The notes beneath the pieces were generated by a model. That model did no database searches and was not told the DNA's origin. It was given only the letters and a program-made list of their open reading frames with translations. A stretch of 32,000 bases of DNA from Rubeoparvulum massiliense (lineage in GTDB: Bacteria; Bacillota; Bacilli; Rubeoparvulales; Rubeoparvulaceae). Both the position numbers and the translations under genes were made by a program. Each line of letters begins with the position of its first letter. Within the stretch, counting starts at the first letter, position 1. Positions 4,837-31,940 of the stretch are shown piece after piece. The DNA lies in NCBI RefSeq assembly GCF_001049895.1, contig NZ_CVPE01000006.1:672503-704502 (forward strand). Reading direction: 5' to 3'.

Positions 4837-5190
4837 TTACTTTTGCTCTGCGAGCCATGCAGCCATTGCTTGTAGCTCTTCATCAGTGAAATTACCTTTT
4901 TGAGCAGGCATCGCACCACGACCATCACGAATGACTTGGTAAATTTCATCTTGAGAGAGACGAGAGCCTACATCATTCAAGGCTGGCATAGCACCTTGAC
5001 CTTCTAAGTTACCACCGTGACAACCAAGGCAAGAACTGCCTTTTACCAATTTTTCACCATCGAGTGCTGTTGCAGGAGCTGAAGTCTCAGTTTGTGGAGC
5101 ATCTGTTGCTTTATCTCCGCCAGAGGAACAGGCTGATAACAGTCCGATGGAAAGAATGAGGGCAAAACAGGTAAGCAATACTTTTTTCAT
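4837..5190 (-). CDS. Membrane-anchored (lipoprotein) c-type cytochrome, c551/CccB-like
   Basis: Single CXXCH haem site (CLGCHGG). The signal peptide has a lipobox (MKKVLLTCFALILSIGLLSAC). I prefer the start at MKK (ATG 5190), preceded by GGAGGTG, over the track start at 5208. Confidence 0.85.
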   Translation of the reverse strand: MKKVLLTCFALILSIGLLSACSSGGDKATDAPQTETSAPATALDGEKLVKGSSCLGCHGGNLEGQGAMPALNDVGSRLSQDEIYQVIRDGRGAMPAQKGNFTDEELQAMAAWLAEQK

Positions 5191-5358
5191 CTTGTCACCT
5201 CCTTCCACTCACCTGTATATCTTATCAGGATTTACCTTCACAAAAAAGACATAAAGGCTTGTGTTCACAGGTTTGTCACACATTCATTCACCCCTACATA
5301 CCCTGTACCATACATGAAGTACTAGGGGAGGTAGGCGCTTATCGAACAACTGCCTTCA

Positions 5359-6462
5359 TTGCTTTGTCGTATTGGACAAAAGAATTTTGCAACACAGAGT
5401 ACACGAATTATTCTCCATGTTCCACAGCGCTCCCTTTATCAGGAATGCTGTCATGCACTACAAACTGCGCGAATCGGCTATAAGCCTTATTTCTATTTCA
5501 ATATGATCCTCCTACCTGTGAAGGAAGAGAGTCTCTTACGTCTGATTCGCAAGCATGCAGAGGTTGGCGTGGTGGAGCTCGACCAGCCTGTTCATCATGC
5601 ACCGATCCGGTCAGGAGGCGCGCAAAATCAAGACCCCCTATGGAATCTGAAAGCCATCGATGCCCTCTCATTACCTATCAATCAATTACCTTATCGCCCC
5701 AAAATCGGCGTCATCGATACGGGTATCAGCTCACATCGAGATTTAACCGTCCTACGCAAATGGGGACGAAATTTTGTCACTCCCCATGGAAGAACCTATG
5801 ATGATAATGGTCATGGCACCCATGTAGCAGGTATCATTGCAGCAAAGCGTGGTCCTCGCGATAGCTTTGGTGTTGCCCGTGGCTTTCCCCTCATCCCCTT
5901 GAAGGCATTTAATGATCAAGGCATGGCTTTTACCTCAGACATTATTGCAAGCATTGAATATGCCATTCGTCATCGTATTAAGATCCTAAACATGAGCTTT
6001 GGTTTTGAACGGACACAGGCTTCCATGCATCAAGCCATCCGTGCTGCTTATCAAAATGGGATGATCATGGTAACCGCTGCTGGTAACACAGGGCGACAAG
6101 GAGTGGATTATCCTGCCCGTTACCCAGAGACCATCACCGTAACCTCCATGAATCAACAGCATACCATCTCAACCTTCTCAAGCTTTGGCGGACAGGTAGA
6201 TCTTGCTGCTCCTGGAGAAGGAATTATCTCCACCTGGCGTCATCATCGCTATCAAACGCTGAGCGGTACCTCCATGGCGGCTGCCCATGTGTCAGGTGTA
6301 ATCGCTCTACTCTGTGCTCGCTATCCCAAGCTAACCTCACAGGAAGCGCTGCATATTTTAAAACGAACAGCCCATCCTCTCCCCCACATGAGCCACCTAC
6401 GACAGGGAGCAGGAGTCGTTCAAGCGAAAAGTGCTCTTCAATATTTAGAACAGATCCTTTAA
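5359..6462 (+). CDS. S8 subtilisin-family serine peptidase with I9-like propeptide and no signal peptide (AprX-like)
   Basis: Catalytic triad motifs are present: IGVIDTGI (Asp), HGTHVAG (His), GTSMAAAHVSG (Ser). The upstream part (RIILHV...LLPVKEESLLRLIRKHAEVGVVELDQPV) reads like an I9 inhibitor propeptide. The start is uncertain; see the finding on the SD-positioned ATC at 5341. Confidence 0.85.
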   Translation: MLCRIGQKNFATQSTRIILHVPQRSLYQECCHALQTARIGYKPYFYFNMILLPVKEESLLRLIRKHAEVGVVELDQPVHHAPIRSGGAQNQDPLWNLKAIDALSLPINQLPYRPKIGVIDTGISSHRDLTVLRKWGRNFVTPHGRTYDDNGHGTHVAGIIAAKRGPRDSFGVARGFPLIPLKAFNDQGMAFTSDIIASIEYAIRHRIKILNMSFGFERTQASMHQAIRAAYQNGMIMVTAAGNTGRQGVDYPARYPETITVTSMNQQHTISTFSSFGGQVDLAAPGEGIISTWRHHRYQTLSGTSMAAAHVSGVIALLCARYPKLTSQEALHILKRTAHPLPHMSHLRQGAGVVQAKSALQYLEQIL

Positions 6463-6482
6463 AATCAAGCTATACATTGAAA

Positions 6483-10156: not shown

Positions 10157-10225
10157 TGGAGCTGGATGAACATAAGGGCGGCTGTATAGCTGCCCTATTT
10201 CATTGATCCTAAAAAAGCGGTCAAA

Positions 10226-10257
10226 AAAACAGCTTCAGATGATTCTGAAGCTGTTTT
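10226..10257. terminator. Bidirectional rho-independent terminator (csp / yjcZ-like)
   Basis: AAAACAGCTTCAGA (10226-10239) pairs with TCTGAAGCTGTTTT (10244-10257). A-run and T-run flanks give a U-tail on both strands. Confidence 0.75.
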
Positions 10258-10280
10258 ATACGTTAGTATTCAAACTCGGC

Positions 10281-10481
10281 TTATAGTTTAGTTACGTTAG
10301 CAGCTTGAGGTCCGCGTTCACCTTGAACGATTTCAAAGCTTACTCGTTGGCCCTCATCCAGTGTTTTGAAGCCATCACCTTGGATTGCAGAGAAGTGTAC
10401 GAATACATCGTCCCCACCTTCAACAGCGATAAAGCCATAGCCTTTTTCTGCATTAAACCACTTAACGATACCTTCTTGCAT
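10281..10481 (-). CDS. Cold-shock protein (CspA family)
   Basis: [18 protein letters not shown]...DVFVHFSAI carries the RNP1/RNP2 motifs. The 66-aa product starts at ATG 10481 with AGGAGG 8 nt upstream. The track's 5' extension to 10508 is rejected. Confidence 0.95.
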
Positions 10482-10589
10482 TTTCAATTTCCTCCTAACG
10501 CCTTGCACGTTCGTCGTGCAAAAACCTTGAATTTACTTATCAAACAAGGTGAACTCCATACTGGATTTGAACCCTATCTGACTACGATT

Positions 10590-10618
10590 AATATACTATG
10601 TTTCATGGGAGAAGTCAA
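10590..10618 (-). promoter_or_regulatory. Sigma-A type promoter of the csp gene with a long 5' UTR
   Basis: The reverse strand reads TTGACT-17 nt-TATATT (complements of 10613-10618 and 10590-10595). It is followed by a ~100-nt leader containing the hairpin TTGCACG-acgaa-CGTGCAA, as is typical for csp leaders. Confidence 0.5.
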
Positions 10619-11046
10619 ACCCAATGTGATGCAAAGGCATGAAAAATAACCACTATTTTCTTTAGAAATATCTGGCATCATGAACCTTTTTACAACACTT
10701 TGGTTTTGTATATTATGGTTCAAAATCCAACTTTGATCATCTTGCCTTGTCTTGACTCCATCATAAGTTTTCCCCTGAAATAGCATTTCATACGTATATT
10801 AGTCCACCTAAAGATTTCCATATTGATCATCTGAATTTCTCCTAACTCAAACAATATTTTTCTTACATATCTGTTTTATTTTTACTTACGTGAAATGTAT
10901 CACTTATCAGGAATATTAACGTGTTCCTCCATTTTCGAGCATCCAGAATACTCCATATTTCTTCCTAAATAATGGTGAGTGGTAAGGATTACCAACCCTT
11001 AACCAGAAAAACTCATGTTAGAATGCTAGGCAAGGAGGAGATGTAA

Positions 11047-25964: not shown

Positions 25965-28259
25965 TCATCCTTCCACCAAGCGTTTTAATAAATGAAGGGC
26001 ATCACCTTTACCTGTCAAGCCTGTTTCTTCAACAGGCCCTGTACAGGATGGGCAACCCTGGGAACAACCACAATCCTTAATCAACTGGATGGCATGCTGT
26101 AATAAGGCATGTTCTACCTGAAAAAGGTGCTCGCTTAAGCCCACACCACCGGGATAGCGATCGTAGAAAAAGATTGTGGGCAGTCCCGAATGAACGGCTT
26201 TTACCTGTGCTACCACACGGATATCCATGGGATCAGACATCACGTAGAGAGGGGCAATACTTTGTAAGAGATGGGCCACCCCCACCAGTGCCTGACGTAA
26301 GCGATCCTCAGACCACCCCAGTTCTTGCAGCTCCTCTGCCTTGAGAGCAATCCAATAGGAAGAGGTATGTATCTCCTGTTCTGGGAGATGGATGGGGCCA
26401 GAGCCGATATTCTCATGGGTATTAAATTTGATCTTTTTGAAGATGGTGGCCATGGCATTAACCGTCACATCACCATAATGACTGGCGTGAAAGGTATGAT
26501 CCTGCCCGGTGAACTCTTCCAATACCTTCAGCTGAACAGCAAGATTGGCATCGGTGTAATAATCCACATCCACCTGGCGAACATAGGCCTTCTTCTCTTC
26601 ATAATCTAGCTTCTCCACTTGATATTGCACACCTTCATGGAGGTAGATGGCCTCCTCATGTACTAAGGTGAGGGCACTAAAACGATCCACCTCGCCCAGA
26701 ACCTTGGTCTGCCCCGTGATGGTGATGTCAATAATCACTACATTCTCCTGGGCAGTGCTACGAAGGCTAATATTATGGGCTGGAAATGAGGAGTTGGACC
26801 AATAGTAGCGGGCGCCTGAATGATGAAGAATTCCTTCTTCTACTAAAAATTGTGCAACTTCATCCACAGGTAGCGTACCAAAGGATTCCCCTTCTTCAAA
26901 GGGGAGCTCATAGGCTGCACATTTTACATGATCGACGAGAATGATTAGATTGTCTGGATTGATCCGTGCCTGTTCAGGCGTCCCCTCTAGAAAGAAATCG
27001 GGGTGCTGAATCACAAATTGGTCCAAGGGATTGGAGCTGGCCACGAGAAAGACGATGGAGGTCTCCATGCGGCGGCCCGCCCTTCCTGCCTGCTGCCAGG
27101 TGCTGGCAATGGAACCAGGATAGCCGGTCAAGACACAGGCCTGTAGCTGACCAATATCGATCCCGAGCTCTAAGGCATTGGTGCTCACCACACCTTGAAT
27201 CTCTCCTGATCGTAAGCCACGCTCAATTTCTCGGCGGAGCTTGGGCAGATAGCCGCCACGATAGCCCCGGATCCGCTTGCTTCCAAGTTCCTTACTGGTC
27301 AGTGCCTGAAGGTAAGTAAGGAGCAGCTCCACCTGTACACGACTACGGGCGAACACAATGGTTTGGATCTCATTTTTCAAGAGTAGGGCTGCTAATTGCT
27401 GTGCTTCCAACAGGCTACTTCTTCGAATCCCCAATGTAGGGTTCACTACTGGTGGATTATAGAAGACAAAATGCTTCTCCCCACGTGGTGCCCCATTATC
27501 ATTGATGACTTGGACAGGTTCCTCGATTAAGCGTTCCACATGCTCCTGGGGATTGGCGATGGTGGCAGATGCGCAGATAATCTGGGGATCGGAGCCATAG
27601 TAGCGGGCGATCCTTTTTAAGCGACGCAGTACGTTGGCTACATGACTGCCAAAAACCCCACGATAGCTATGGACCTCATCGATCACAATATAATGAAGGT
27701 TTTCAAACATCTGAATCCACTTGGTATGATGGGGGAGGATGGCTGAATGGAGCATGTCGGGATTGGTGATAACGATATGCCCGCCCTTGCGAATCACCTG
27801 GCGAATATTGGGTGGTGTATCACCATCATAGGTATGAGTGCGAATATCCACACCCATCAGCTCGATCCAGGATTGTAATTCAGCTAATTGATCCTGGGCC
27901 AGCGCCTTGGTTGGAAAGAGATAGAGCGCCCTTGCATCAGGGTTCTTCAAGATCCCTTGCAAAACAGGCAGATTATAGCACATGGTCTTCCCTGAGGCGG
28001 TAGGGGTAACCGTTACCACATGCTTTCCTGCTAAGACTGCTGCAAAGGCTTGGGCCTGATGGGTATAGAGCTCATGGATTCCCCGTTCCTCCAGCGTTTT
28101 TCGGAGGAAGGGATGCAATTCATTGGGAAAAGGTACCGTGCGAGCAGGCTGTGCTGGTACGGTTAGCCAATGCGTCACTTGTTCCATTAACTCTGGGATC
28201 CCTTGAATTTTTGTAATCAATTCATCTAGATTTTCCGCTTTTCCTGTGAGACGATTCAT
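25965..28259 (-). CDS. mrfA: MrfA/YprA-like DEAD/DEAH-box helicase with C-terminal DUF1998 Cys cluster
   Basis: Helicase motifs TPTASGKT (I), VIDEVH (II), ASAT (III), QQAGRAGRR (VI). C-terminal four-Cys cluster CGCSQGCPSC. I prefer ATG 28259 (AGGGGGAG SD) to the track GTG 28265. Confidence 0.88.
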   Translation of the reverse strand: MNRLTGKAENLDELITKIQGIPELMEQVTHWLTVPAQPARTVPFPNELHPFLRKTLEERGIHELYTHQAQAFAAVLAGKHVVTVTPTASGKTMCYNLPVLQGILKNPDARALYLFPTKALAQDQLAELQSWIELMGVDIRTHTYDGDTPPNIRQVIRKGGHIVITNPDMLHSAILPHHTKWIQMFENLHYIVIDEVHSYRGVFGSHVANVLRRLKRIARYYGSDPQIICASATIANPQEHVERLIEEPVQVINDNGAPRGEKHFVFYNPPVVNPTLGIRRSSLLEAQQLAALLLKNEIQTIVFARSRVQVELLLTYLQALTSKELGSKRIRGYRGGYLPKLRREIERGLRSGEIQGVVSTNALELGIDIGQLQACVLTGYPGSIASTWQQAGRAGRRMETSIVFLVASSNPLDQFVIQHPDFFLEGTPEQARINPDNLIILVDHVKCAAYELPFEEGESFGTLPVDEVAQFLVEEGILHHSGARYYWSNSSFPAHNISLRSTAQENVVIIDITITGQTKVLGEVDRFSALTLVHEEAIYLHEGVQYQVEKLDYEEKKAYVRQVDVDYYTDANLAVQLKVLEEFTGQDHTFHASHYGDVTVNAMATIFKKIKFNTHENIGSGPIHLPEQEIHTSSYWIALKAEELQELGWSEDRLRQALVGVAHLLQSIAPLYVMSDPMDIRVVAQVKAVHSGLPTIFFYDRYPGGVGLSEHLFQVEHALLQHAIQLIKDCGCSQGCPSCTGPVEETGLTGKGDALHLLKRLVEG

Positions 28260-28266
28260 GCCCACT

Positions 28267-28310
28267 CCCCCTGGGGGTCAGTCCCCCACTACACTATCGC
28301 TTTAACGCAA
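28267..28310. repeat. G5-N5-C5 palindromic repeat, copy 1 (single arm plus core remnant)
   Basis: CCCCCTGGGGGTCAGTCCCCC (28267-28287), followed by ...CGCTTTAACGCAA (28298-28310), which resembles the core of the other copies. It lies directly upstream of the mrfA SD. Confidence 0.7.
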
Positions 28311-28362
28311 TAATGTAGGTAGAGTTGATCCCATTACTTGAGAACAGTTATTCGTATCTTTT

Positions 28363-28391
28363 ATTGTAGTGAATCTTCGCCATTTGATCAA
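28363..28391 (-). promoter_or_regulatory. Putative sigma-A promoter for mrfAB
   Basis: The reverse strand reads TTGATC (28386-28391)-17 nt-TACAAT (28363-28368). It is located between repeat copies 2 and 1. Confidence 0.45.
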
Positions 28392-28395
28392 TAAA

Positions 28396-28448
28396 GGGGG
28401 TCAGTCCCCCATTGCTTTAACACACTACCGCAACGGGGAACTGACCCC
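28396..28448. repeat. G5-N5-C5 palindromic repeat, copy 2 (inverted orientation relative to copies 3 and 4)
   Basis: GGGGGTCAGTCCCCC-attgctttaacacactaccgcaac-GGGGAACTGACCCC. The arms are complementary with one bulged A. The last base is shared with the dsrE-like stop codon. Confidence 0.85.
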
Positions 28449-28930
28449 TAGATAAATAGATTCACTTTGCCGTCTTCTGCATCTGCTAGATAAGCTGCTA
28501 CACCTGCAAACTCTAAGCCATCGATTAGTTCCTCTTCACGAATCCCCATCACATCCATGGACATGGTGCATGCCACCATCTTGATCTCTAAATCTCTGGC
28601 CATCTCCATCAATTGATTCAATGAAGCGATCTGTTTCTTCTTCATGACTGCTTTCATCATCCTAGCTCCTAAACCACCATAATTCATCTTGGACAAGCCT
28701 AGCTTTTCTGGACCGCGGGGCATCATTTTTTCGAACATTTTTTCAATCCAGGTTTTCTTCAGCTTCACCTGCTCTGGCTTCCGTAATAGATTGAGTCCCC
28801 AAAAGGTGAAAAACATGGTCACCTCTTTCCCCATGGCAGCAGCACCTGTACCAATGATGAAGCTGGCAATGGCCTTATCGAGATCGCCACTAAAAACAAC
28901 CAAGGTGGCCTTTTCGTTTGACGTATTCAA
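28448..28930 (-). CDS. DsrE/DsrF-like sulfur-relay family protein
   Basis: 160 aa. ATLVVFSGDLDKAIASFIIGTGAAAMG...VTMFFTFWG and the C-terminal MVACTMSMDVMG (conserved Cys) are typical of the DsrE-like proteins found in yrk/cst-type clusters. TTG start with AAGGGGAG SD. Confidence 0.8.
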   Translation of the reverse strand: MNTSNEKATLVVFSGDLDKAIASFIIGTGAAAMGKEVTMFFTFWGLNLLRKPEQVKLKKTWIEKMFEKMMPRGPEKLGLSKMNYGGLGARMMKAVMKKKQIASLNQLMEMARDLEIKMVACTMSMDVMGIREEELIDGLEFAGVAAYLADAEDGKVNLFI

Positions 28931-28948
28931 TCATCATCTCCCCTTAAT

Positions 28949-29007
28949 GGGGTCAGTCCCCCGCCGCGTTAGCGCGTTAAATTAACGGGGGACTGACCCC
29001 CCTATAG
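28949..29007. repeat. G5-N5-C5 palindromic repeat, copy 3
   Basis: GGGGTCAGTCCCCC-gccgcgttagcgcgttaaattaac-GGGGGACTGACCCCCCTATAG. The 14-nt arms are perfectly complementary. It lies between the tauE-like stop and the dsrE-like SD. Confidence 0.9.
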
Positions 29008-29778
29008 AATATCCCACCAAATCTTTATTGTGGTGGCGAGTATTAATGTAGCTAAGATGCCTTGTAATACGCTGGTTTTGGTGCGCTTGCTCGCCCAAGC
29101 TCCCAGTGGTGTTGCTAACACGCTGGCAATCACCATGATGACAGCAGGTAGAAAGAGCACCTGACCGGTAACAACCTTGCCAACGGTGGCTCCGATGGAG
29201 GAGAGAAAGGTGACTGCTAAGGATGTAGCAATGGTGACACGCATGGGAATTTTCAGTACAACCAGCATCACAGGAACTAAGAGAAAGGCACCACCTGCTC
29301 CAACCACCCCTGCTGCAGTTCCAATCATCAACGCTAATGTACTCGCTATCCCTTTAGAAAATTGCACTTGATCACCTGACTGATCCTCGCGCTCCTTACG
29401 CGGTAGCATCATCATAATGGCAGCCAGTGTAGCCATGATAGCATAGATGATATTGATCCCCCGCTCTGGCATAAATGTGGAGCCATACCCACCGATAAAG
29501 CTTCCAACGAGAATACTGATACCCATATAGATAATTAAACTGGTATTAAGATAACCACCCTTGCGATAGGCCCAGACACCAGTCAGCGCTGAAAAGAAGA
29601 CCTGTATTGCGGTAATCCCTGCTACTTCGTGGGGTGTAAATGCTAGTAATCCCAGCATGGGAGGAATGTAGAGAAGCATGGGGTACTTAATAATGGCTCC
29701 ACCAATACCTACCATTCCTGAGATAAATGAGCCGATAAATCCAATGAGAAAGATCGTTATAAAGAGTAAGGGTTCCAT
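29002..29778 (-). CDS. TauE/SafE family sulfite/organosulfur exporter (YrkJ-like)
   Basis: 258 aa with about 8 TM helices and the Gly-rich internal repeat typical of TauE/SafE (GMVGIGGAII ... AAGVVGAGGAFLLVP). AAGGAGAA SD. Confidence 0.85.
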   Translation of the reverse strand: MEPLLFITIFLIGFIGSFISGMVGIGGAIIKYPMLLYIPPMLGLLAFTPHEVAGITAIQVFFSALTGVWAYRKGGYLNTSLIIYMGISILVGSFIGGYGSTFMPERGINIIYAIMATLAAIMMMLPRKEREDQSGDQVQFSKGIASTLALMIGTAAGVVGAGGAFLLVPVMLVVLKIPMRVTIATSLAVTFLSSIGATVGKVVTGQVLFLPAVIMVIASVLATPLGAWASKRTKTSVLQGILATLILATTIKIWWDIL

Positions 29779-29795
29779 ATGGTTTCTCCTTATAT

Positions 29796-29859
29796 TATAG
29801 GGGGTCTGACCCCCTGTGCGTTAACGCGTTAAATTAGTGGGGGACTGACCCCCCTATAG
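29796..29859. repeat. G5-N5-C5 palindromic repeat, copy 4
   Basis: TATAGGGGGTCTGACCCCC-tgtgcgttaacgcgttaaattagt-GGGGGACTGACCCCCCTATAG. The last 42 nt match copy 3 at 39 positions. It has terminal TATAG/CTATA inverted ends. Confidence 0.9.
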
Positions 29860-30979
29860 CACAACGATTCGGGCCAATCTCCAGCTCAGCCAATCGCTCC
29901 TCATCCACATGCTCAAGAACACCACGATTAATGGACACAATCTCTGTAAAATTAGGTGGCTTTACATGACTAGCCGATTCCTCCACCCTCTCCAAGAACG
30001 TCTCCTTATCGGTATTGAACATCTCCTGATTCCGCTGACGAATGGATCCTAAAGCTGCGCCAATATAGCCCTGTTCATTCATCTCTTCCTGTAGATTGGC
30101 ATAATGGGCTGGTAAAACTAAAACATCATCAGCGATCTCTGCAACCTTGGTATAGACGGTATCATAGAGCTGTTCTGCCCATTCCTGCACCTGACCTCCT
30201 AAATCGGGACGACCCAAGCCACTGATAAATATGGTATCCCCTGAGAAAAGCAGCTTCTGATTCAAGAAAAAGGAGACACTACCTGGGGTATGACCAGGGG
30301 TCTTTAAGGCGATCACTTCTAGCTCCGCCTGTTGAAACTGAATCTGCTCATGCTGCTCCAAAGGTTCAAATGGAAGAACAGCCCCTTCACTCTTCATCAG
30401 ATAGTAGGTTGCGCCAGTAAGCTGGGCTAAGGCTGGACCGCCAGAGATATGGTCCGCATGAAGATGAGAATCTGCAATCCGCGTAATCTTCACATTAAGC
30501 CGCTCTGCTACATCCAGATAGAACTGTGTAAATCGAGAAGGGTCGATGATTAACATTTCGTCACCAGAGATAACGAGGTAAGATAAGCAGCCTTTTCCCA
30601 CACGGATCACTTGATAAACCACCACATGGCCATCTTCATATACTTTCTTTTCATACAACTGCTCACTCCACTGCTTCATCCCACCTGCTAAATAGAAGAG
30701 ATTTTTATAGCCAGCTTCTGTAAGCTGTTCTGCCACAAAGATTGAGCTGCCTTCCTTCGCACAGGCGACGAGGATGGGTCCGTCTTGCGGAAGCTTTCCT
30801 TCCAGCTGATCCACACCATCCAAAAGCTCAAAGTATGGAATATTGAGGGAAGTGAAATACTTTCCTTCAATTCGCCAATTCTCATATTCCTCACCATTGC
30901 GAACATCTAGAATAAAAAGTTGCTCACCATCGACCAACCGCTGTGTCACTTCCGCCGCTGTCATCGCATGAATACTCAT
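29834..30979 (-). CDS. Rhodanese-metallo-beta-lactamase fusion (persulfide dioxygenase-like, YrkH/CstB-like)
   Basis: N-terminal rhodanese-like domain (FILDVRNGEEYENWRIEG...VACAKEGSS), then an MBL fold with HLHADH (HxHxDH) and a later GHTPGS. GGAGGGG SD. The last 8 codons are repeat-derived. Confidence 0.85.
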   Translation of the reverse strand: MSIHAMTAAEVTQRLVDGEQLFILDVRNGEEYENWRIEGKYFTSLNIPYFELLDGVDQLEGKLPQDGPILVACAKEGSSIFVAEQLTEAGYKNLFYLAGGMKQWSEQLYEKKVYEDGHVVVYQVIRVGKGCLSYLVISGDEMLIIDPSRFTQFYLDVAERLNVKITRIADSHLHADHISGGPALAQLTGATYYLMKSEGAVLPFEPLEQHEQIQFQQAELEVIALKTPGHTPGSVSFFLNQKLLFSGDTIFISGLGRPDLGGQVQEWAEQLYDTVYTKVAEIADDVLVLPAHYANLQEEMNEQGYIGAALGSIRQRNQEMFNTDKETFLERVEESASHVKPPNFTEIVSINRGVLEHVDEERLAELEIGPNRCAIGGSVPH

Positions 30980-31010: not shown

Positions 31011-31580
31011 TTATAGCCTTTCTACAGGCCCTTGCCATTGGGACATTCCTGGAATTACATTCTTCACCTTGGTAATGCCCTTTTCTTGGAGAAGCTGACA
31101 AGCATAGTCGCTACGATTGCCTGTTCGGCAGATGAGATAATATTCTTCATCCTTGGAAAATTGATTTAGATTATCTTCTAATTGGTGATAAGGAATTAAA
31201 AAGGCACCCGGAATATGGCCAAAAGCAAACTCCGCAGGCTCACGGACATCGATGATCTTGATGTTTGCGTTTTCATTGAGCTTCTGTAGAAGTTCATCAT
31301 TATGAATTACTTGGGTGAACGTTGTCTCTTCCTTACGTTCATTGAGATTTGCCTTGCGAAGATAATGTTTTAACACACCATCCTCATCTAAACTCCCGAG
31401 ATAATGGTGACCTGTGGTCTTAGCAAAACCTTGAATATCTGCCAATGATCCTCGGTCAGTTGCTTGCACCTCTAATACCTGGCCTGCTTCCAACCCTTCC
31501 AATGCTTTTTTCGTCTTTACAATTGGCATTGGACATGATAAACCCTTGGCATCCACAATCTGATCCACAACAATGCTCAT
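31011..31580 (-). CDS. TusA/SirA-rhodanese fusion sulfurtransferase (YrkF/CstA-like)
   Basis: The N-terminal TusA motif DAKGLSCPMPIVKTKKAL (CPxP) and a C-terminal rhodanese with the active-site loop CRTGNRS are present. GGAGG SD 9 nt upstream. Confidence 0.88.
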   Translation of the reverse strand: MSIVVDQIVDAKGLSCPMPIVKTKKALEGLEAGQVLEVQATDRGSLADIQGFAKTTGHHYLGSLDEDGVLKHYLRKANLNERKEETTFTQVIHNDELLQKLNENANIKIIDVREPAEFAFGHIPGAFLIPYHQLEDNLNQFSKDEEYYLICRTGNRSDYACQLLQEKGITKVKNVIPGMSQWQGPVERL

Positions 31581-31662: not shown

Positions 31663-31820
31663 CTATTATAGATTATGGCTATTCATGTAATTTGAACCTT
31701 CTTTTCCTATCTGAAGAACTGCACCTTCTTCATTGGTTAGGAACATTTACCTAGATCATGAGCTTCGTCACAGCAGGGTTGGAGATGAGGGTTAACGACC
31801 ACATGTGAACAATAAAAAAA

Positions 31821-31845
31821 GCAGGAGAATAATATATTCTCCTGC
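31821..31845 (-). terminator. Rho-independent terminator of an upstream - strand gene
   Basis: GCAGGAGAATA pairs with TATTCTCCTGC (31821-31845). The A7 run at 31814-31820 gives a U-tail on the - strand. Confidence 0.75.
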
Positions 31846-31940
31846 CTAACGATGAGTTGATCAAAGAGCTGACTGTTCTATGGATCCGTAAATCAATCCA
31901 TTCAATCATCAATTTAACTTTCTATAAGACTGAACTCCTA

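Follow-up and report, generated by a model that had tools for sequence, protein, structure and literature searches.

A REP/REPIN-like repeat family, very probably partnered by a RAYT-type transposase, in the gaps of a sulfur operon of Rubeoparvulum massiliense

Results

The stretch of Rubeoparvulum massiliense DNA analyzed here (32,000 nucleotides (nt) of contig NZ_CVPE01000006.1, positions 672,503 to 704,502; hereafter the window) carries four copies of a short palindromic element in the gaps of a sulfur operon and in the leader of the downstream gene mrfA. We conclude that these four elements are very probably copies of a repetitive extragenic palindromic (REP)/REPIN-like family that belongs to a Y1/HUH transposase of the REP-associated tyrosine transposase (RAYT) type, more precisely a TIRYT-like one. 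Judged by sequence, the closest match within the REP/REPIN-RAYT systems would be the TIRYT/TIRtron variant, with mosaics like those of BIMEs. The kind of element is already known, and the transposase family is annotated in the NCBI and JGI pipelines. A literature search with the arm sequence gave chance primer matches only and found no name for the repeat family, and PMC3733652 and PMC5581495, scanned for 'Bacill', describe no Bacillaceae repeat family.

Structure of the repeats

Seven 15-nt arms of the form G5-TCAGT/ACTGA-C5 make up three double-arm elements and one single-arm element between positions 28273 and 29854. The arms read GGGGGTCAGTCCCCC or the inverse GGGGGACTGACCCCC, with a single variant, GGGGGTCTGACCCCC, and in each double-arm copy (28396-28449, 28948-29002 and 29800-29854) they enclose a 24-nt linker. 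The linker core, TTAACGCGTTAA, is a perfect 12-bp palindrome composed of AACGCGTT 8-mers, and a single 15-nt arm is by itself a 5-bp hairpin. A search with the motif GGGGKYCWGWCCCC at up to one mismatch returned 12 strand-matches, every one of them at the four copies, compared with 0.08 expected from shuffled sequences. The 15-mer arm has no further match in the rest of the 32-kb window at up to three mismatches.

These results agree with an earlier sequence-only reading of the same DNA, which had placed four copies at these positions and had seen none in the other ~30 kb. That reading had counted 14 complementary base pairs between the arms of copy 3; the complementarity in fact extends over all 15 nt (100%). 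Copies 3 and 4 are identical at 39 of their last 42 nt, including the common tail CCCCCCTATAG, exactly as had been described, and they share a run of 21 identical nt that includes flanking sequence. Copy 2 is closer to copies 3 and 4 as the reverse complement (83% and 77% identity, respectively) than in the direct orientation (71%), so the element does occur in both orientations, as the same reading had proposed.

A RAYT gene flanked by the same repeats

A RAYT or IS200-like tyrosine transposase elsewhere in the genome, which had been suggested as a possible partner, does exist. The protein WP_048601431.1, encoded on a contig other than that of the window, is annotated 'REP-associated tyrosine transposase [Rubeoparvulum massiliense]' and scores 82.6 bits on the NCBIfam model REP_Tyr_transpos (cut-off 80), and its gene has the same repeats on both sides. 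On contig L260, a full doublet stops 19-25 nt short of the RAYT start codon, and the first arm and linker of a second doublet encode the last ten codons of the RAYT together with its stop (...EEGGQSPSDLTL*). Two unrelated intergenic regions of this contig, at distances of 4.5 and 5.8 kb, contain one more doublet each (5147-5200 and 6429-6482, respectively). All three short-read contigs that carry the R. massiliense RAYT begin inside the upstream arm, as is expected of a repeat-induced assembly break. The RAYT locus of R. massiliense is a REPtron.

A tblastn search with E. coli RayT against the retrieved loci found a match in Neobacillus cucumis, an open reading frame (ORF) of 189 amino acids (aa; Pfam Y1_Tnp, 1.7e-12) whose product is 61% identical to WP_048601431.1 and which is preceded by an arm at a distance of 157 nt and followed by a full doublet after 18 nt. 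RAYT homologues are widespread in Bacillaceae, mostly on one contig per assembly, and among the matches listed they occur in at least six repeat-bearing species. The HUH histidines and the catalytic tyrosine are invariant in 14 Bacillaceae homologues. The RAYT genes of Bacillus sp. V5-8f and B. aerolatus have arms on both sides, and a GGGGWSAS motif stands 19-157 nt upstream of Bacillaceae RAYT genes.

The association between gene and arm extends to another phylum. Two Actinomycetota metagenome-assembled genomes (MAGs; Thermoleophilia, Miltoncostaeaceae; L063 5900-6800 and L083 1350-2200), found in the pattern scan described below, encode a RAYT homologue (38% identical to the Bacillus one) with tandem arrays of the same G4-N5-C4 arm on both sides at a 17-nt pitch. 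Among 80 metagenomic relatives (40-52% identical), a full G4N5C4 arm lies beside only the two closest. For 40 of 58 metagenomic relatives, the sequence GGGGTCAG(G/T) precedes the ATG by 45-55 nt, relative to a background of 0.17 per 300 nt. In the same set (L178-L257), the string GGGGTCAGG(T/C)(C/T)TTG... is kept about 45-55 nt before the ATG of 40 of the 58 genes, next to a TTG hexamer that is -35-like. The RAYT's own promoter appears to be fused to the conserved end motif in these relatives.

Spread and architecture in other genomes

The two-arm pattern GGGGTCWGWCCCC-N15-45-ACTGACCCC, scanned in one genome per species, matched at least 120 loci. Among the matches listed, to which the following results for Bacillaceae loci also refer, 51 loci from at least 25 Bacillaceae species carry the arm-linker-arm unit; the repeat-bearing taxa include Neobacillus, Peribacillus, Virgibacillus, Heyndrickxia, Metabacillus and several Bacillus spp. 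Their consensus is tGGGGTCAGTCCCCC-G.caCgtTAACGCGTTAAagCa.c-GGGGGACTGACCCCc or a version of it with a 16-nt linker. The arrangement of copies 2-4 in the window, arm, 24-nt linker and inverted arm, recurs in 34 Bacillaceae elements, and a 16-nt linker is present in 8 more. Together with four further sites in R. massiliense, these unrelated intergenic sites in many Bacillaceae establish that the motif occurs well beyond the locus in which it was noticed.

Within the 51 loci, 67 of the 79 arm clusters located away from locus edges are intergenic (39 between tandem, 17 between convergent and 11 between divergent genes). Arrays contain one to three arms, in the arrangements LR, LLR, LRR, RL and LRL, their pitch is exactly 39 or 31 nt and their linkers are of the TTAACGCGTTAA type, and linker-like sequence often extends beyond the outer arms. 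Bacillus sp. V5-8f (L054 3054-3107) has two arms at an intergenic site where, at the orthologous position, Peribacillus glennii (L115 2259-2351) has three; between the two species the arms do not differ, whereas identity is ~60% in the linkers and ~90% in the flanks, which indicates that arrays expand and contract while the arms stay conserved. For the repeats, a search of Rfam gave nothing at the gathering threshold and nothing relevant at permissive thresholds, the best match being freshwater-2 (E=4.4, 19.7 bits compared with the 49.9 needed).

The unit is a 15-nt arm (G5-TCAGT-C5 or the inverse) plus a 24-nt (or 16-nt) linker of AACGCGTT palindromes. Two inverted arms around one linker give the 54-nt doublet, the analogue of a REPIN, and longer arrays hold an exact 39-nt pitch, like BIMEs. 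By comparison with IS200/IS605 and RAYT enzymes, the transposase would recognize the arm when single-stranded DNA folds into the hairpin and, acting in trans, may have seeded or maintained the copies in the short gaps of the operon. As computed, single-stranded DNA hairpins have folding energies of -4.6 kcal/mol for one arm and -23.8 kcal/mol for the copy 3 doublet.

Other phyla have distinct repeat families, in Pirellulales (L045, L053, L071, L100, L106, L109, L141) and Pseudoduganella (L059, L074, L075, L085, L105, L119). These have the same outer arms (GGGGTCTGTCCCC ... GGGGACTGACCCC) and wholly different interiors, and the Pseudoduganella repeats often occur as inverted pairs ~38 nt apart, in a REPIN-like manner.

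Fit of the copies to the host operon

All genes in this region lie on the - strand (Table 1), with mrfB following mrfA. The TauE protein of the window shows 100% identity to R. massiliense TauE, and the next homologues are only ~70% identical.

Table 1 Repeat copies, genes and promoter elements in the window
Feature	Position	Strand	Description
Copy 1	28273-28321		Single arm GGGGGTCAGTCCCCC at 28273-28287 plus palindromic linker-like hairpin (ACTACACTATCGC-TTTAAC-GCAATAATGTAGG)
Copy 2	28396-28449		Arms 28396-28410 and 28435-28449; linker inverted relative to copies 3 and 4
Copy 3	28948-29007		Arms 28948-28962 and 28987-29001; linker GCCGCGTTAGCGCGTTAAATTAAC; CTATAG flank in common with copy 4
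Copy 4	29796-29859		Arms 29800-29814 (GGGGGTCTGACCCCC) and 29839-29853 (GGGGGACTGACCCCC); linker TGTGCGTTAACGCGTTAAATTAGT; TATAG/CTATA flanks
mrfA	25965-28259	-	DEAD/MZB helicase; gene downstream of the operon, copy 1 in its leader
DsrE2	28448-28930	-	Host sulfur operon
TauE	29002-29778	-	Host sulfur operon
Rhodanese-MBL (Rhd-MBL)	29834-30979	-	Host sulfur operon; persulfide dioxygenase-like
Last five codons of Rhd-MBL (G-S-V-P-H) and TAA stop	29834-29851	-	Encoded by arm and linker of copy 4
TusA-Rhodanese	31011-31580	-	Host sulfur operon
CsoR/CstR-type palindrome TACCCCTATGGGTA	31618-31605	-	Just before the TusA-Rhd Shine-Dalgarno sequence; candidate operator, unrelated to the repeats
Operon promoter TTGACA-17-TATAAT	31662-31634	-	Perfect sigma-A type

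The copies fit closely between these genes. On the mRNA strand, the arm of copy 1 ends 1 nt before the Shine-Dalgarno sequence of mrfA (AGGGGGAG, ATG 28259). The first base of copy 2, read on the - strand, is the G that ends the DsrE2 stop codon TAG, and UUUAUUGAUC follows the copy. Copy 3 lies between the TauE stop, a TAG within CTATAG that directly abuts it, and the DsrE2 Shine-Dalgarno sequence (28938-28945), and copy 4 lies between Rhd-MBL and the TauE Shine-Dalgarno sequence (29785-29791); copies 3 and 4 end 3-8 nt before the next Shine-Dalgarno sequence. The sequence-only reading had put every copy exactly between a stop codon and the next Shine-Dalgarno sequence, which is mostly right; it does not hold for copy 4, which supplies the 3' end of Rhd-MBL, and it is imprecise for TauE and DsrE2, whose stop codons abut or overlap an arm.

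The Rhd-MBL protein ends in ...GPNRCAIG-GSVPH* here, whereas its orthologues finish in ...GPNRCAIG* or ...CAVS*, and at 381 aa it is longer than four orthologues, which have 374-376 aa. The 3' end of this gene was rewritten by copy 4. It may be noted that Rhd-MBL (29834-29851) and the RAYT gene (L260 601-633) are both ORFs that end inside an element, in different frames (GSVPH* and GGQSPSDLTL*, respectively). The same repeat copies are present in five further R. massiliense assemblies (six Logan contigs), and one of these differs from the window by 24 substitutions in 7.6 kb, 3 of them within repeats.

When the mRNA strand is folded, very stable hairpins are predicted for all copies: copy 2 reaches -39.7 kcal/mol (z -7.0), copy 3 -43.2 kcal/mol (z -6.8) and copy 4 -30.8 kcal/mol (z -3.3), and copy 1 forms two adjacent hairpins at -27.1 kcal/mol. 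A terminator scan found the hairpin of copy 2 followed by UUUAUU and no U-tract after the full hairpins of copies 3 and 4, which confirms the earlier remark that only copy 2 has a U-rich tail. The scan also lists a mini-hairpin in the upstream arm of copy 3 (29002-28987), the tail of which, GUUAAUUUAA, is the element's own linker. With its U-rich tail, copy 2 is most likely the terminator of the sulfur operon. In E. coli, REPs guard the upstream mRNA from 3' exonucleases and can impede terminating ribosomes; those located no more than ~15 nt from a stop codon are reported to stall ribosomes (Liang, Rudd and Deutscher 2015). By analogy, copies 3 and 4 most likely act as barriers to 3' exonucleases or as decouplers of adjacent cistrons, and because they abut or include stop codons they could likewise impede terminating ribosomes. 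Of the stabilizer, processing-site and attenuator roles put forward in the sequence-only reading, the folding energies and the terminator-like tail of copy 2 are what the analysis shows, and the roles themselves are inferred.

Orthologous operons were compared in Virgibacillus campisalis, Thalassobacillus devorans, Bacillus sp. V3B and a Halalkalibacter-like contig (L169, L171, L258 and L259). The arms are absent from all four, so that the comparison of orthologous clusters proposed in the sequence-only reading did yield empty sites, in operons of other genera. These operons carry ATACC..GGTAT operators that resemble the promoter palindrome of the window. In L258 and L259 the operator is of the same type and a PF02583 repressor gene is present in L259; in the window, the operon has no repressor gene next to it.

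Unrelated GC-rich hairpins are located at the same intercistronic junctions in other genera (L169 4945-5010; L171 4611-4690 and 4905-5005; L258 9947-10001), as exemplified by GGGGGACAGAC...GGCTGTCCCC in Thalassobacillus devorans. Their presence suggests that hairpins are common in such gaps, whatever their origin.

Two other features of the window were recorded. A 23-nt sequence, GGAGATGAGGGTTAACGACCACA (+ strand, ~31758-31806), occurs once in the window, immediately downstream of the gcvPB terminator (31819-31847), and is duplicated in tandem in a 99.4%-identical strain (L001). Rfam matches a cspA thermoregulator (RF01766) at 10225-10682 (-) with 84.7 bits (gathering score 78) over the full length of the model.

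Discussion

Comparison with known systems

The REP/REPIN-RAYT systems of Gammaproteobacteria comprise the E. coli REPs with RayT/YafM and the REPINs of Pseudomonas (PMC2817692, PMC3116915, PMC5581495). The family described here resembles them in several respects: (i) It consists of short, intergenic, multi-copy palindromes. (ii) The palindromes form inverted doublets around a spacer. (iii) There are no target-site duplications. (iv) A Y1/HUH gene is found on one contig per assembly and is flanked by the repeats, and the R. massiliense protein passes REP_Tyr_transpos. It differs in that the arm is only 15 nt long and is a near-perfect G5-N5-C5 palindrome with no conserved GTAG tag, in that the host belongs to the Bacillaceae, and in that the copy number may be modest.

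TIRYT genes are RAYT-like genes whose flanking inverted repeats carry GGGGWSAS (Di Nocera et al. 2013, PMC3733652), a motif that the arm GGGGTCAG fits. The protein shares with the TIRYT group an N-terminal M(A/P)R..R...PG..HhtqRGN, a YCLMxNHxHL HUH block and a Y...NP...WSS tail and, in a comparison made by eye only, resembles four rows in the alignment of PMC3733652 (pca 3049, gbm 2474, dau 2153 and rba 2408). As in TIRtrons, the repeats are moderately abundant and occur as singles, dimers and clusters. In contrast to the published TIRYT set, which does not include Bacillaceae (PMC3733652), GGGGWSAS is here completed to a self-complementary 15-mer and joined to a conserved AACGCGTT-based linker at a fixed pitch.

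The third point of reference is the E. coli BIME, with which the arrays share mosaic palindromic units, mixed orientation, conserved linkers and regular spacing, although the sequences are unrelated. The NIMEs of Neisseria, which are built from dRS3 repeats, are comparable mosaic arrays. BIMEs bind IHF, gyrase or Pol I, and dRS3 is a phage-integrase target.

Weighing the RAYT assignment

Several results weigh against assigning the repeats to the RAYT. (i) No GTAG-like tetranucleotide is conserved outside the arms in the 34 aligned elements, the CTATAG flank being common to copies 3 and 4 of the window only, and the cleavage tag of classical REPs is therefore missing. (ii) Two of five Bacillaceae RAYT genes have no intact adjoining arm (that of B15-48 has the degenerate GGGGTCCCCC and that of V. 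oceani has none), and two genomes with a RAYT homologue show no arm in 20.8 kb around the sulfur operon; the presence of a RAYT is thus no guarantee of abundant arms. (iii) The R. massiliense assemblies did not differ in the presence or absence of copies and thus give no evidence of recent mobility. (iv) The eight element sites known in R. massiliense come from ~50 kb of sampled regions that are not random. (v) Contig L260 is a Logan assembly, from samples that also contain the operon of the window, and not the NCBI contig itself. Three alternatives have to be considered in the light of these points.

The elements might instead be structural RNA or DNA elements that are selected by the host and have spread by recombination or gene conversion without a transposase, the RAYT link being incidental or historical. 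Their roles would be those of intercistronic stabilizers or terminators, or of sites for nucleoid or topology proteins as for BIMEs. Several observations are in line with this idea, which we nevertheless regard as unlikely. From genus to genus the linkers drift and the arms do not change, which suggests selection or homogenization; stop codons on one side and Shine-Dalgarno sequences on the other leave the copies little spare room; the 21 nt shared by copies 3 and 4, flank included, look like the outcome of duplication or conversion at the locus; GC hairpins of unrelated sequence occupy these intercistronic positions in other genera; and the R. massiliense assemblies show no insertion polymorphism. 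However, the RAYT gene is flanked by arms in R. massiliense, in three other Bacillaceae and in two Actinomycetota, which makes an incidental link very unlikely, and the occurrence of both orientations and of elements in divergent promoter regions does not fit one RNA function. A host function is in any case compatible with RAYT-driven spread and does not exclude it.

It is considerably less probable that the elements are classical miniature inverted-repeat transposable elements (MITEs), i.e., deletion derivatives of a DDE insertion sequence (IS) whose arms are terminal inverted repeats and which move by cut-and-paste. They are indeed short, dispersed and intergenic and have terminal inverted arms. 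Like the bacterial MITEs bcr1 of B. cereus, Correia/NEMIS, RUP and ERIC, they are small, non-coding and gene-adjacent and form strong RNA hairpins, and repeats of both kinds, when co-transcribed, may alter the expression of their neighbors. However, MITEs have target-site duplications and derive from DDE insertion sequences, whereas the flank matches at 46 elements equal those of shuffled partners, with no excess of target-site duplications, and the partner here is a Y1 enzyme. No DDE transposase, and indeed no gene family, recurs among 423 ORFs neighboring the repeats, the only repeated neighbors being ABC ATPases and two-component systems. Single arms and three-arm arrays of fixed pitch do not fit an element with two terminal inverted repeats, and the gene that the arms flank is a Y1/HUH transposase. 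Nor did the plasmid and phage collections searched give more than chance matches: by BLAST, the consensus had no match in the plasmid collection and a single chance partial match in the phage collection (E=4, one Klebsiella phage in two records), and an arm scan of viral contigs gave 42 single matches and no family.

The sequence-only reading had preferred a mobile REP/MITE-like unit to a fixed operator. The REP part of this proposal is upheld by the dispersal of the element and by the RAYT; the MITE label fails because there is neither a target-site duplication nor an association with a DDE transposase. A likeness of GGGGTCTGAC to the Tn3 terminal repeat was also considered and dropped: it covers the first 10 nt only, in the rarer arm variant, and the spacing is wrong for the ACGYTAAG box.

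That the repeats are dedicated operators of the cst-like sulfur operon, read by a palindrome-binding repressor, has next to no probability left: the sites are palindromic, rich in G/C tracts, as CsoR/RcnR-family operators likewise are, and grouped in one operon, but they lie at the 3' ends of cistrons rather than at the promoter, which already has its own CstR-type palindrome TACCCCTATGGGTA of a type recurring in orthologous loci; four orthologous operons lack the repeats; the 51 Bacillaceae loci have the element without any homologue of the operon of the window; and in R. massiliense the element also occurs near the RAYT gene, a glpP-like gene and a HAD hydrolase gene. By their position and by the repeat-free orthologous operons, a role of the repeats as operators is effectively refuted.

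Assignment of the repeats to the RAYT leaves two features unexplained, the identity of the arms across phyla and the strict 39-nt modularity. We tentatively raise the possibility that one deep RAYT/TIRYT clade uses the 15-nt G4-5-(T/A)C(A/T)G(A/T)-C4-5 hairpin as its conserved recognition module, with an identical arm in Bacillaceae, Actinomycetota and probably Planctomycetota, Acidobacteriota and Betaproteobacteria, and that in Bacillaceae the hairpin now builds a BIME-like mosaic not described before, which consists of arm-plus-linker units spaced at exactly 39 nt and is domesticated and not purely selfish. As part of the same tentative proposal, the domesticated form would prefer gaps between a stop codon and a Shine-Dalgarno sequence and would supply stop codons, terminators and intercistronic hairpins.

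Significance

For genome annotation, the elements matter in that they create spurious or extended ORF ends, as at the C-termini of Rhd-MBL and the RAYT, break short-read assemblies, and can be mistaken for operators or terminators. In the operon studied here they may help to set how strongly the persulfide dioxygenase, the TauE exporter and DsrE2 are expressed relative to one another. REP/REPIN-RAYT systems have been studied almost entirely in Enterobacteria and Pseudomonas, and the present family provides a clean Gram-positive example. With a very short, near-symmetric hairpin, modules of fixed pitch and the transposase in place, it makes the recognition and copying of repeats by a RAYT testable in a new lineage, and it opens to testing there the question of why hosts keep RAYT repeats.

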